Made by a program: the position numbers. A DNA stretch of 64,000 nt, taken from assembly GCF_057098645.1 (NCBI RefSeq), contig NZ_CM169472.1. One strand, written 5' to 3'. The first letter of the stretch is position 1. Each line of letters starts with the position of its first letter. This document shows, in pieces, positions 55,801 through 58,800 of this stretch.

Positions 55801-58800
55801 ACCAACAAAAAATGGTCGGCTGATTATGCCGCCCGTATTCTCGCCAGTATGGAAAACCATATCTTCCCGGCGGTTGGTCACCTGCCCGTTGCTGCGCTTA
55901 AAACGCAGGATTTCACCGCACTGCTGCGGGTTATTGAGGATAAGGGCTTTCTGGAAGTCGCGTCCCGCACGCGACAGCAACTCAGCAACATCATGCGCTA
56001 TGCCGTTCAGCAGGGACTTACCGACAGTAACCCGGCGCAGCATCTGGAAGGCGTTGTCTCCTCCCCCGTAAAGAATCACTACCCCGCGTTACCGCTGGAG
56101 CGGTTGTCCGAACTGCTTGGCCGCATCGGTGACTATCAGCAGGGCCGGGAGTTAACCCGGCTGGCGGTGGTGCTGACACTGCACCTGTTCATCCGTTCCA
56201 GCGAACTGCGTTTCGCCCGCTGGAGCGAGATCGATTTCAGGCACAAAATCTGGACCATCCCCGCCACCCGCGAGGCCATCGACAAAGTTCGGTTTTCGGG
56301 GCGTGGCGCAAAAATGCGTACCCCGCATATCGTACCGCTCTCCCGCCAGGCGATTGCCCTTCTGAAACAGATACAGGAGCTTTCCGGCCATCTGGATCTG
56401 GTGTTTCCCGGCGATCATAATCCGTACAAGCCAATGAGCGAAAACACAACCAACCGGGCGCTGCGCCTGATGGGGTATGACACGAAAACTGAAATCTGCG
56501 GGCATGGACTCAAGGCAATGGCCTGTAGCGCCCTGGTGGAGTCGGACCTGTGGTCACGCGATACGGTGGAGCGGCAAATGAGCCACCAGGAGCGCAACAG
56601 CGTGCGGGCGGCATATGTGCATAAAGCAGAGCATCTGGAGGCCAGAAAGGCCATGATGCAGTGGTGGTCGGATTATCTGGATGTGTGCCGCGAGGGGTAT
56701 GTTGCGCCGTACATTTATGCCCGGCAGCATAAGGCAGCCTGAATCAGAAATAGCGTAAATCATTAAAACCGGAAAAGCAGATCCTGATTGACCGGGATCT
56801 GTTTTTTTGTATTGAGAGGTATTGTTGCTGTTTTTGTTATTATTAATTGGGAAGCACCGAAAATTATTCCAGTAGAATATTTGCAGGCGACTGCCTATTA
56901 ATAAATGCATTATTGATAGATAACTACCTTCTGTGATTTGCCCGCAAATCACAGAAGATGAAAACCTATCAATACGGGATATTTTCACGGAAATACCAAT
57001 TAATACTCCAGAATATCTCCTGACCATATACTCTGAAACCTGTAAGAACTGCATCAGATATTGAGAGACCAGATAGATGTAAGTCTGAAATTATTTTGTT
57101 TCCAATGATTTCAGGCGAAAAACCTATCAATACATCTGTTTTCAATAGGCAGCCACCTTCCGTGATTAACATGTTAATCACGGAAGGTGAAAAGCTTTCA
57201 ATAATCGATATTTCCACGGTATTACCACTTAATACATCCCAAAAAATGCGCCATAAAATACCGGACAATCTTTCCTGATACACATTATCACTGCACCAGC
57301 TATACAGAGACAAAATAATCTGCACCCGTCCTGGATAATCTGCTATCTGCGCCAGCGTCCCGCCGCTCTACCTGTTCAGGGCTGCGCCAGTTCCTGGCCC
57401 TTTAGTTTTTGGCCCTTTCAGGTCAGGCGCTGTTACCCTTATCGCCCCCTTAACCTTTATGACCCTTTCCCTTTCTGGCGCAACCAGTTTATTTGGAAAT
57501 GCTCCATGACAGTCTGCACCAGACTGTATTTTCACCACAGGATAACGATCACAAAGTGCAAAAAATAACATGAAGCACCGAAGATTCTTAATTCATATGA
57601 AGCAGGTTATTATGCCAAAAACCGTCGCAGCATTTTTATAAAATCATGAGGCATCCTGAGACCATATAATATATGTCACAGGATACGGAAAAACACAGAG
57701 AGAATTATTCAGATATAAGCCTGCACCAAAATTAATGTGATGCCCCGGTGAATTTACATTTTAAAATTTCCCCAGCCCTGTAGTATTGGTAAAAATGAAT
57801 GAAACACCTGTTATCAATTGGAATCGTTTCGAGTGATTACAGGGTAATCACTATAATATCCCGGCAAACTATATTGGTTAAGCAGGAGAATCTGATCTGT
57901 TGATATTTATTCGTCATGCTGTAACGATATTTTCACAATATAAACCCGTTCGCCCCCTGCGCCAGATCCGGAACATAGGGTACGATAAATCGCTGTCGTT
58001 ACACAGTAACCGCATTATTTTGCGCCATTCATGAACTCAGTCATTCCTCCTTCCAGCGGTAGCCGTACACCTGTTTCACCCAGCGACCGCGACCGTCGCC
58101 ATGACCCAGATCCGTCGCCGTCAGCGCCAGTGACTCCTTTTCGCTGAATCCCTGTTCCAGATAATGGCGGATCGCATCCTGCGCCCATGCATAACGCAGG
58201 GAGTGCGGGGAAAATTCGCCTGTCAGCCCCACTTTAACCGCCTGTCTGTGCCAGTGATTCATGGCTGTTTTAAGGTCGGGCTTGTCGATCAGCCTGCTAT
58301 TGCATTGTTCTGCTGCAAGTAACGCTTTTTCAAGGGCTTTCCTGACTGCGCCAGTATCCAGGACTGTCGTATGGCGGGGACGACCGCCCTTGGTGCCAAA
58401 CACCACTTTCAGCCGGTTTTCCCCGCGTTCAATGGTTTTCAGCCACGTTTTCAGCGACTGTGAACTCTGTACCGCCTCCTGCGAACGTAGCCCCATCAGC
58501 CGCGCAATCTCCAGCACTGCCGCCAGCCCTGCGTCCTGAGTGCGGGCTTTCTCCATCACCTGCTGGTAATGTTCCGGCGTGATGGCGCGGCGCGTGCCGT
58601 TGCGCGAAGCGCCTGACACCCCTAATGCCTTATTGGTCAGACGCGGATGCTCCACCACCTGCCTGCGTTCAGCCTATCTCAGCACGGTCCGCAACGCTGC
58701 CATTCCGTTTTGCAGCGTTCGTAAACCAATATCCTGCTCCAGCCGTTCCTCAATGTAGCATTCGATATGGCGAACCTTGATCTGCTGCACCCGCTGGATC

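Follow-up and report, generated by a model that had tools for sequence, protein, structure and literature searches.

In the 64-kb window (i.e., the whole stretch of DNA analysed here), we found an island arranged in the order tRNA-Asn, P4-type integrase gene (int), bidirectional terminator, AT-rich spacer with palindromes, relaxase homologue on the minus strand and EFASI RNA motif. The tRNA-Asn gene (asnT, beside mtfA; 55243–55318, plus strand), which was recovered by ARAGORN, the Rfam tRNA model and the RefSeq annotation of an identical locus, is the integration site of the island. The tyrosine integrase gene (55480–56742, plus strand; RefSeq CDS WP_000055685.1) encodes the Pfam domains Arm-DNA-bind_3, Phage_int_M and Phage_integrase; it is intact here and a pseudogene in most other strains. 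An inverted repeat at 56773–56812 (AAAAGCAGATCC..GGATCTGTTTTTTT; features given without a strand are unstranded) forms the bidirectional intrinsic terminator of int, and this hairpin is conserved in all related islands, being found in the Enterobacter, Citrobacter, Klebsiella, Salmonella and E. albertii loci.

The gene converging on int (58041–58924, minus strand; Pfam Phage_int_SAM_2 and Integrase_1) is homologous to MOB_M-type, tyrosine-recombinase-like relaxases. It possesses the core-binding and catalytic domains of tyrosine recombinases with the residues R..K..HxxR..H..Y, and is 49% identical over its full length to WP_033567157.1 of the ICE SGI-4, a protein that serves as a MOB_M seed (preprint 10.64898/2026.01.13.699239); PF12835 has been classed as INT_DTR_like (PMC10484663). 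The copy in the window is a pseudogene (annotated as 'frameshifted; internal stop'), and an intact gene for 294 amino acids is found in other strains. Judging from these similarities, the second 'integrase' of the island is probably a relaxase. Immediately upstream of this gene lies the EFASI RNA motif (58979–59107, minus strand; Rfam RF02957, scoring 94 bits where the gathering score is 51), which occupies the same position in seven other loci. The locus is a small integrative mobilizable element at tRNA-Asn in Escherichia. A search for attR recovered no second copy of the tRNA 3' end in the window or in another locus, L003. Within the spacer, a GC-rich element at 57341–57500, carrying CTGCGCCAG twice and GGCCCTTT-type direct repeats, stands out by a GC content of 54% against 36–39% in its flanks, and is the only part of the spacer conserved in the Enterobacter, Klebsiella, Citrobacter and E. 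albertii islands as well. When the two AT-rich blocks around this element were compared for inverted symmetry, only matches of 9–11 nt were found.

The spacer carries three palindromes. P1 (56928–56957; CTTCTGTGATTTGC-CC-GCAAATCACAGAAG), seen in the sequence itself, the repeat search and the perfect-stem scan, has perfect arms of 14 bp around a non-symmetric centre of 2 nt. P2 (57154–57189; CACCTTCCGTGATTAACA joined directly to TGTTAATCACGGAAGGTG) was recovered in the same three ways; it is perfect over 36 bp in the window, and shows one or two mismatches in the alignment of many other strains. The preliminary description spoke of two long perfect palindromes, which is accurate for P2 and not strictly so for P1. 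The core that it regarded as shared also exists, not as an identical TCCGTGATT but as TTCYGTGATT-N8-AATCACRGAA, in which T..A of P1 is replaced by C..G in P2, a compensated difference. Its placement of the pair 200–450 bp past the integrase stop agrees with the 186–447 bp measured from the int stop codon (56742), and the palindromes are indeed non-coding and situated beyond the int terminator. In both, 11-bp arms (CTTCYGTGATT) enclose 8 bp, and the centres are unlike, TGCCCGCA in P1 and AACATGTT in P2, each being symmetric by itself. P3 (57832–57852; AGTGATTAC-AGG-GTAATCACT), detected by the perfect-stem scan, has the same GTGATT/AATCAC half-sites as P1 and P2. The shared core matches twice in the window against 0.01 expected by chance, and the three GTGATT-N7/8-AATCAC sites (P1, P2 and P3) fall inside 1 kb against 0.02 expected. 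P1 and P2 are also the only perfect inverted repeats with arms of at least 12 bp and a loop of at most 4 nt in the 64 kb. The P1/P2 sequence is no assembly artefact, being present in metagenome contigs as well as in 433 complete E. coli genomes. P3, the copy-number variation of the modules and the MOB_M relaxase homologue converging on the spacer had no place in the preliminary description.

P1 and P2 sit in a tandem module with a period of 229 bp. The duplicated flanking motifs reported earlier were recovered as a direct repeat of 113 nt (56894–57006 versus 57123–57235, 73% identical; repeat search) and as a 27-nt box, here called the X box, in two copies. Each palindrome is followed by GTGAAAAsCTATCAATA and then by the X box (ATATTTYCACGGnAnTACCAnTTAATA), which occurs at 56979 and 57208 against zero occurrences expected. 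The stretch after P1 (56958–57005, plus strand) consists of ATGAAAACCTATCAATA and X box 1 (56979–57005), the latter containing TCACGGAA as a third half-site, at a distance of 37 bp from P1's right arm, and that after P2 (57187–57234, plus strand) of GTGAAAAGCTTTCAATA and X box 2 (57208–57234). Ahead of P1 lies an AT-rich hairpin, A1 (56895–56919; CTATTAATAA / TTATTGATAG), whose right arm also pairs with CTATCAATA at 56966. Through this pairing P1 is enclosed by an outer stem, the whole forming an imperfect palindrome of 86 bp (42-nt arms, 74% complementary), and the outer stem is visible in the RNA fold. The region between the modules (57085–57153) comprises a hairpin (57085–57114), the motif CGAAAAACCTATCAATA and a degenerate hairpin A2. 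A further remnant, 'module 0' (56840–56904), was recognised by repeat search and alignment as two X-like units in imperfect inverted arrangement; in other strains this position holds a 64-bp near-perfect palindrome (31-nt arms, 97% complementary, in the loci L003 and L026), which has been deleted in the lineage of the window. Neither the palindrome modules nor the X boxes occur again in the 64-kb window. These comparisons show that a single unit, comprising a palindrome, GTGAAAAsCTATCAATA and an X box, gave rise to the modules by tandem duplication, and that they are gained and lost via unequal crossing-over and deletion between short direct repeats. E. whittamii carries a hybrid P1/X2 module. 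P3, for its part, resembles an X unit carrying an inverted 11-bp insertion.

The palindrome modules are confined to E. coli and E. whittamii, in one to three copies. Of the 5,426 E. coli genomes, 399–433 carry the module, which is chromosomal, at one to four places per genome, all of them in asn-tRNA islands and never on plasmids; E. coli ATCC 8739 is a carrier with two loci. The sister islands of Enterobacter, Klebsiella and Citrobacter, with orthologous int and with relaxases 72–77% identical to that of the window, have no palindrome modules in their spacers. Because these orthologous islands of other genera do without them, the modules are accessory and needed by neither the integrase nor the relaxase. 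No comparable palindrome was detected beside the plasmid and ICE homologues of the Integrase_1 gene (L008–L010) or in the Salmonella locus L007, which rules out a feature of Integrase_1 genes in general. The orthologous position is occupied by another palindrome, also of 36 bp, in Salmonella and by yet another in E. albertii; palindromy is kept there and the sequence is not. Searches of 72,556 plasmids (PLSDB) and 50,697 phage records by blastn (E up to 10) returned nothing similar, a weak negative as short or degenerate matches are beyond the reach of such a search. The exact arm pattern, when sought in 100,044 species genomes, was found only in E. whittamii and in six unrelated palindromes, presumably by chance. 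A literature search on the palindrome sequences yielded nothing relevant.

The stems evolve about three-fold slower than the surrounding non-coding DNA, as only 7 of the 87 palindrome positions vary compared with 238 of the 978 in other spacer DNA (Fisher's test, P = 2.7e-4), and it is the loops and the copy number that vary. The arms of P1 were invariant in 20 of 21 variants (centre CC or CT), and those of P3 in 18 variants, in which the loop is AGG, AGGG or CGG and the spacer 7 or 8 bp at similar frequencies. Both sets of arms are essentially invariant among lineages that differ by 7–13% elsewhere in the spacer. P2 is less uniform, with one or two uncompensated mismatches across a large E. 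coli clade. Five of the 18 stem pairs have changed on both sides, the change of the P2 centre from AACATGTT to AACGCGTT in the locus L006 adding to this covariation, and 92.6% of the cells are paired, compared with 35–45% in slid controls; neither strand is favoured (92.6% on the plus and 89.5% on the minus strand). The features generally expected of a stem-loop, i.e., compensatory substitutions and stems more conserved than loops, were thus observed, albeit with few independent events and symmetry on both strands. Beyond the pairing, the sequence itself is conserved in the outer arm CTTCYGTGATT and in the GTGATT hexamers. We also noticed that diversity declines toward int across the region, which could overstate the apparent constraint, and that one ancient event, the duplication relating P1 to P2, accounts for part of the covariation. 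The symmetry of a stem could be re-established by hairpin-templated repair without selection.

Several known classes of element were compared with the palindromes and set aside. The preliminary description had considered arm-type integrase sites, and this proposal was not supported: arm sites of the P4/lambda type are short, recur on both the P and P' arms and keep within about 150 bp of the att core, while the palindromes are 1.6–1.9 kb from the tRNA core, beyond int and its terminator, and the tRNA-proximal att arm (55319–55560) contains no module motif. Behind the HPI integrases, the closest relatives of int, ybtS comes next at a distance of 194 bp and such repeats are lacking, and the int genes of the sister islands lack them as well. 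A search of 55000–60500 with Rfam 15 (E up to 1) gave nothing over the palindromes, and the only matches over 56743–58040 were chance-level ones to microRNA families and CrcZ, far below the gathering scores. Promoters are dismissed, since hits were no more frequent than in shuffled sequence. Integron attC sites are likewise rejected, the R'' (RYYYAAC) and R' (GTTRRRY) boundaries being absent and the neighbouring genes coding for P4-type Int and Integrase_1, not IntI. Small proteins or type I toxins find no place either, because the ORFs of the modules are not conserved between the two modules, a 67-aa ORF at 57368–57571 contains stop codons in many strains, no spacer ORF is conserved and Pfam gave no match. 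The STAXI consensus is unrelated to the palindromes.

Of the explanations considered, we favour, with a probability of roughly 40%, that P1–P3 are structure-constrained hairpin elements, formed in RNA or single-stranded DNA, within a copy-number-variable insertion in the spacer between the convergent genes. Compensatory changes and conserved stems are what the hairpin-forming elements envisaged in the preliminary description should display. The stems of P3 stay invariant while the length of its loop changes, which a hairpin tolerates better than a site bound by a dimer would. The palindromes may act through hairpins formed by the nucleic acid itself, and not through a fixed site geometry. The hairpins would form on transcripts entering the spacer from the relaxase gene or int, and could serve as REP-like barriers or processing sites insulating the convergent genes. 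Alternatively, they may form on the single strand transferred in conjugation. REP/BIME elements of E. coli offer a parallel, as they are imperfect or perfect palindromes of ~35 bp between convergent genes, folding into hairpins that lack U-tails and by which transcripts can be protected or processed. However, the REP consensus is GC-rich and its copies, numbering hundreds, are scattered, whereas P1 and P2 belong to a single locus, are AT-rich and bear no similarity to REP. The sib element of phage lambda is another possible analogue, being a hairpin a few hundred base pairs downstream of an integrase gene, and the palindromes could similarly act on read-through int transcripts. Lambda sib acts on antiterminated PL transcripts, and integration separates sib from int. 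Unlike in lambda, a strong terminator stands here between int and the P1/P2 hairpins.

The conserved outer-arm sequence and GTGATT hexamers are also what a protein site would show. It is possible, though we regard it as unlikely, that the palindromes serve a dimeric DNA-binding protein as operators, in line with the regulator binding sites of the preliminary description, or as centromere-like sites; the GTGATT half-sites would be spaced by 8 bp, and every X box would contribute one more. The gene for such a protein would reside in the island itself (HTH_35 or a HigA-like XRE protein) or in a helper conjugative element. The clustering of the three sites far beyond chance, the recurrence of TCACGGAA in X box 1 at a fixed distance from the right arm and the retention of the outer arms as sequence are all in favour of this explanation. 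SGI1 provides a precedent: its 22-bp inverted repeats, which reside in the 31-bp direct repeats DR1 and DR2, match 14 sites of the IncC helper plasmid and bind ParB (PMC10954446). These parS mimics resemble P1 and P2: in each case two palindromes are set in direct repeats, the DNA is non-coding and belongs to an integrative mobilizable element with a MOB_M relaxase, and the cis elements are accessory. P1 and P2 are longer (30–36 bp, in 229-bp modules) and, unlike the repeats of SGI1, have no similar sequence in the plasmids, phages and other genomes searched except E. whittamii. If the palindromes mimicked parS or operator sites, a helper plasmid or ICE should carry the inverted repeat repeatedly, and none was detected, subject to the same weakness of that search; the blastn comparison with plasmids and phages likewise gave no match in favour of mimicry of oriT, parS or phage sites. 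Consensus promoter-like hexamers on the minus strand overlap P1 and abut P3, as befits an operator, but such matches are no commoner than in shuffled sequence. Against this explanation, the inner spacer is symmetric too, which a reader of half-sites does not require, the spacer of P3 alternates between 7 and 8 bp, and the sites persist in decayed islands without HTH genes.

Somewhat more doubtful is the possibility that the palindromes are functionless, unstable DNA, in which an AT-rich spacer has been expanded by duplication and the symmetry maintained or generated by hairpin-templated strand switching in replication. The modules are lineage-specific and dispensable, their copy number varies, and deletions have taken place between the short direct repeats flanking the palindromes. 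The module-0 palindrome of L003 and L026 has recently been 'perfected' to its 31-nt arms, P3 resembles an X unit with an inverted insertion as described above, and the island is decaying in most strains, in which int or the relaxase gene is pseudogenised. Nevertheless, templated conversion alone should not reduce the substitution rate between strains, and the three-fold lower variability of the palindrome positions relative to the adjacent non-coding DNA, together with the near-invariance of the P1 and P3 arms where the spacer differs by 7–13%, is at odds with an absence of function. So is the retention of a palindrome at this position by Salmonella and E. albertii.

A bolder proposal, which we put forward as a speculation with little likelihood of being correct, is that the GTGATT-N8-AATCAC hairpins are an interface of the MOB_M island with single-stranded DNA or with a helper, an Escherichia-specific add-on tuning mobilisation or stability. 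The relaxase could recognise them, folded on the single strand, as the places where transfer ends or the DNA is re-circularised. Alternatively, they could prime synthesis of the complementary strand in the recipient, or imitate the partition or operator sites of a helper that has yet to be sequenced.

We consider it very improbable that the palindromes are recombinase-type core sites, i.e., a secondary oriT/nic, transfer-termination or resolution site for the relaxase or the integrase. The geometry of P1 and P2 matches that of simple tyrosine-recombinase sites such as loxP, FRT and dif (inverted arms of 11–13 bp, a centre or crossover region of 6–8 bp), and the adjacent gene encodes the recombinase domains and residues listed above. 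Unlike in loxP, FRT and dif, however, the centres are symmetric and differ between the copies, so that P1 and P2 could not recombine together, and related enzymes occur without such sites; identical crossover regions and co-occurrence with a cognate recombinase, which typify sites of this class, were not observed. The att arm shares no motif with the palindromes. With regard to transfer origins, the MOB_M oriTs of SGI1 and pIGRK likewise have several intergenic inverted repeats, functionally important ones, beside a gene for a tyrosine-recombinase-like relaxase (PMC6414798; PMC8152469). The oriTs mapped or predicted for MOB_M relaxases are found on the upstream side of the gene (PMC6414798; preprint 10.64898/2026.01.13.699239), and that of SGI1 is GC-rich and 125 bp long (PMC6414798; PMC8152469). 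In contrast, P1–P3 are downstream of the gene, the upstream side here being that of EFASI, and P1 and P2 are AT-rich. As no such site accompanies the 72–77% identical relaxases and orthologous integrases of Enterobacter, Klebsiella and Citrobacter, or the plasmid and ICE homologues, a MOB_M oriT is improbable. Ordinary intrinsic terminators, or repeats of the REP/BIME or MITE type, are scarcely tenable: a consensus scan flagged the minus strand of P1 as terminator-like and convergent genes are a frequent setting of REP, but the size and symmetry are unusual for terminators (as noted in the preliminary description), the tail of P1 (AGTTATCTAT) is weak, the T-run that directly follows the GC-rich stem-loop of a terminator is lacking on both strands of P2 and P3, int already has its own strong bidirectional terminator, no Rfam family matches, and a module restricted to one to four asn-tRNA islands per genome is not a dispersed repeat of many, or as for REP hundreds of, copies.

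If functional, the hairpins would represent an accessory cis-element of integrative mobilizable elements with MOB_M relaxases, a class recognised only recently. MOB_M relaxases are reported to be the commonest on chromosomes (2026 preprint 10.64898/2026.01.13.699239), yet have barely been studied by experiment. The locus, with int, a spacer of one to three modules, the relaxase gene and EFASI, makes a compact natural test bed, which could reveal how convergent recombinase genes are controlled or how the transferred single strand is handled. On the sequence comparisons presented here, P1 and P2 are genuine, conserved and hairpin-capable repeats, and not terminators, REP elements or integrase arm sites. 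The main yield at present is a correction of the annotation, in which a spurious 'hypothetical protein' has been placed across the palindromes.

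The window corresponds to an E. coli O145:H28-like chromosome (100% matches). Within it, mtfA and then tRNA-Asn (55243-55318) are followed by an intact P4-type integrase gene (int; 55480-56742, plus strand) and, 3' of int, a bidirectional terminator (56773-56812). A non-coding spacer of 1.3 kb lies between this terminator and a convergent, 'frameshifted' relaxase-like gene (58041-58924, minus strand) with the Pfam domains Phage_int_SAM_2 and Integrase_1. Directly upstream of the latter is an EFASI RNA motif (58979-59107, minus strand; Rfam, 94 bits), beyond which are found genes for a HigA-like, an HTH_35 and a 169-aa protein, and then type VI secretion genes.

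The spacer had been described as carrying two perfect palindromes. Inspection of the sequence, a repeat finder and a perfect-stem scan recovered both, and P2 (57154-57189; left arm CACCTTCCGTGATTAACA, right arm TGTTAATCACGGAAGGTG) is indeed a perfect palindrome of 36 bp, whereas P1 (CTTCTGTGATTTGC-CC-GCAAATCACAGAAG; 56928-56957) has 14-bp arms around an asymmetric 2-nt centre. No other perfect inverted repeat with arms of at least 12 bp and a loop of at most 4 nt exists in the 64-kb window. The core common to both is TTCYGTGATT-N8-AATCACRGAA (2 matches vs 0.01 expected), and the Y/R difference between P1 and P2 is compensated. The duplicated flanking motifs proved to belong to a 229-bp tandem duplication carrying P1 and P2 (113 nt at 73% identity by the repeat finder). 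Each palindrome has an AT-rich hairpin on its 5' side, and on its 3' side (G/A)TGAAAAsCTATCAATA followed by a 27-nt X box, ATATTTYCACGGnAnTACCAnTTAATA; we refer to palindrome, motif and X box together as a module. The octamer TCACGGAA in X box 1 is identical to an octamer of the P2 right arm. A third palindrome, P3 (AGTGATTAC-AGG-GTAATCACT; 57832-57852), has the hexamer half-sites of P1 and P2. The window contains three matches to GTGATT-N6-9-AATCAC (0.02 expected), every one of them within the spacer.

Of the 5,426 complete E. coli genomes, 433 carry the spacer. It is chromosomal in all, invariably follows this P4-type integrase gene beside an asn-tRNA gene, and is interrupted solely by IS1 insertions. 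A single-module query found no match elsewhere in the E. coli genomes, nor did modules match plasmid and phage records. E. whittamii was the sole further species with the exact arm pattern among 100,044 species genomes. Thirty further copies were recovered from metagenomes with an anchor lying outside the palindromes and aligned together with the genome loci, giving 21 distinct spacer sequences. The module count varies: one in locus L006 (P2-type arms, centre AACGCGTT), two in the window and in E. whittamii, and three in loci L003-L005. One E. whittamii module is a P1/X2 hybrid such as unequal crossing-over would produce. The extra palindrome of L003-L005, that of 'module 0' upstream of P1, has 31-nt arms with 97% complementarity in L003 and L026 (L003 3099-3162), and only a 7-bp core in L005 (3118-3160); in the window lineage, half of module 0 has gone via a deletion between short direct repeats. 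The two arm signatures of module 0 are apparently flipped in E. albertii (L054 6332-6395), and Salmonella has a different perfect palindrome with 17-bp arms at this site (L057 5553-5588). The site thus looks like one of repeated palindrome 'perfecting', inversion and deletion.

Relatives of the relaxase-like protein (72-90% identity) occur in E. albertii, Salmonella, Citrobacter, Klebsiella and Enterobacter. In three of the loci, the 3' side of the gene is occupied by int (Enterobacter and Citrobacter braakii) or by uncalled sequence keeping the int terminator hairpin (Klebsiella). The Enterobacter spacer is 188 bp long and lacks palindromes; beyond the terminator it has only a GC-rich element, made up of CTGCGCCAG and repeats of the GGCCCTTT type, the counterpart of 57341-57500 in the window. 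GTGATT-N6-9-AATCAC has no site in the Enterobacter, C. braakii or Klebsiella loci. The 387-bp spacer of Salmonella L057 carries the different palindrome noted above, 36 bp long (CGTACAAAAAATTTTGG-GG-CCAAAATTTTTTGTACG), followed by CTATCAAT and orthologous to module 0, and E. albertii has the module-0 palindrome alone. As homologous loci lack the palindromes, these are no general companion of the relaxase gene. Because P1/P2-type palindromes are missing from the relatives, and the P1/P2 block (56813-57340) has a GC content of 36% vs 54-56% in int, the relaxase gene and the shared element, the block is a lineage-specific AT-rich insertion lying outside the element's conserved core. The modules are restricted to Escherichia and dispensable. 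The closest other E. coli integrases are those of the HPI (about 72% nucleotide identity), after which ybtS begins at 194 bp.

The palindromes seem to be under constraint. When 15 full-length E. coli spacers of distinct sequence are compared, variation affects 7 of the 87 positions in the palindromes vs 238 of 978 elsewhere in the spacer (Fisher P = 2.7e-4), and for whole modules the figure is 26 of 228 (P = 1e-5), although these sequences are related, recombination between islands is likely, and diversity falls toward int across the region. In nine distinct P sequences, 92.6% of pairs are standard vs 35-45% with the partner slid, five of 18 pairs are changed on both sides, and no shuffle reached the observed covariation score, much of which is traceable to the single P1/P2 duplication. 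Pairing on the minus strand (89.5%) is close to this value, so that neither strand is singled out for folding. The arms of P3 are invariant in 18 variants with AGG, AGGG or CGG loops, and those of P1 are constant around CC or CT; P2 carries one or two uncompensated mismatches in a large clade.

Stems that are conserved and compensated, together with loops, copy number and between-genus sequence that vary, and with dispensability, best fit accessory hairpin elements, a tentative reading (probability about 0.4). Such hairpins could form on transcripts that run out of either convergent gene into the spacer, serving there as a REP-like barrier or in processing, or alternatively on the transferred single strand. 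Inverted-repeat cis-elements of mobile-element spacers are a familiar kind, to which the modules belong. Neither Rfam nor the searchable literature describes them, and no Rfam match assigns them to a described RNA family.

The main rival, a site for a dimeric protein, is doubtful. The GTGATT hexamers are conserved as sequence, an extra half-site is fixed in the X box, and SGI1 parS mimicry provides a direct precedent (PMC10954446); nevertheless, the centres are symmetric, P3 is polymorphic at 7/8 bp, and no matching helper sequence was found in plasmid and phage records. Functionless palindromic DNA kept by template switching is unlikely: it accounts for the instability and the 'perfecting' events but leaves the low diversity unexplained. 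We regard a recombinase-type site or secondary oriT as improbable. The integrase arm-type sites proposed in the preliminary description were not borne out by comparison with the tRNA-proximal att arm. The palindromes are also unlikely to be the oriT: the oriTs mapped or predicted for MOB_M, a family of tyrosine-recombinase-like relaxases, lie upstream of the relaxase gene (PMC6414798; 10.64898/2026.01.13.699239), which is the EFASI side here and not that of the palindromes. Ordinary terminators, already doubted in that description, and REP elements are scarcely credible, since the palindromes have no T-tails, int already has a strong terminator on its 3' side, and the module, sought in the E. 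coli genomes, was confined to a single locus, which rules out REP and MITE alike.

A coding reading was also ruled out, as anticipated. The RefSeq 'hypothetical protein' WP_180192641.1 (56969-57268, minus strand), an open frame across P2, lacks conservation support and is probably spurious; the peptide PSVINMLITEG is encoded there by both strands because P2 is palindromic. Consensus promoter-like hexamers on the minus strand adjoin P3 (57853-57881; TTAACC-17-TATTAT), which would place the transcript start inside P3, and others overlap P1 (56909-56937; ATCACA-17-AATAAT). Such matches are no commoner than in shuffled sequence.

The more useful outcome is a new reading of the 'island integrase' locus, anticipated by a 2026 preprint (10.64898/2026.01.13.699239). 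The Integrase_1 protein in its intact 294-aa form (locus L002) shares 49% identity over its full length with WP_033567157.1 of the ICE SGI-4, which serves as a MOB_M seed in that preprint, and PF12835 is handled as a relaxase-like signature on account of SGI1 MpsA (PMC10484663). By homology, the protein is thus probably a relaxase. MOB_M relaxases are the commonest on chromosomes and 96% adjoin an integrase, according to the preprint; the best reading of the locus is therefore a small integrative mobilizable element. The O145 genome combines an intact integrase gene with a relaxase-like pseudogene, and most other E. coli loci show the opposite, int having an internal stop or frameshift and the 294-aa gene being intact; the element is decaying differently among the four asn-tRNA sites.

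EFASI lies directly upstream of every Integrase_1 gene examined, in the window and in six loci (L002 5250-5379 and L006 5016-5144; Salmonella L007 3811-3939; plasmids or ICEs L008 2697-2845, L009 3729-3878 and L010 3722-3871). In ICEs and plasmids, the gene has STAXI motifs beside it, either at one end or at both. As SGI1 carries an essential sgm-sRNA between mpsA and oriT (PMC9299015), EFASI and STAXI may not be free-standing sRNAs but the small-RNA and oriT parts of MOB_M mobilisation modules. Three further inverted repeats upstream of the relaxase gene and EFASI are candidate operators or a candidate for the real oriT: 59209-59250 (perfect 12-bp arms, 18-nt loop), 59659-59697 (17-nt arms at 82%) and 60072-60116 (20-nt arms at 95%), the last overlapping the HigA-like gene start.

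The GC-rich element at 57341-57500 is the only spacer sequence kept across the E. coli, E. albertii, Enterobacter, Klebsiella and Citrobacter islands. It contains CTGCGCCAG twice, an inverted CTGGCGCA and five to six GGCCCTTT/ACCCTT-type repeats, lies immediately 3' of the relaxase stop codon in Enterobacter, and might act as a structured 3' UTR or as an array of protein-binding sites. A short palindrome, GTTAC-RCA-GTAAC, is found near the 3' end of the relaxase gene (57996-58010). In E. albertii it occurs four times (L054, about 5415-5440, 5480-5500 and 5800-5840) around an extra 95-aa ORF without Pfam match; ORF and palindromes together may represent a small regulator and its operators. The 11-kb Salmonella record L007 (OX345322.1), labelled a plasmid, has tRNA-Ser, an mtfA-like gene and two tRNA-Asn genes and looks like a chromosomal fragment. 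Upstream of mtfA, the region 48350-54109 of the window has an IS3-family element, a DUF4224 gene, a gene with a 3'-5' exoribonuclease domain that is truncated (823-aa ORF here) and another tyrosine integrase adjoining tRNA-Ser. It is the end of a different prophage or island, which borders the asnT island.
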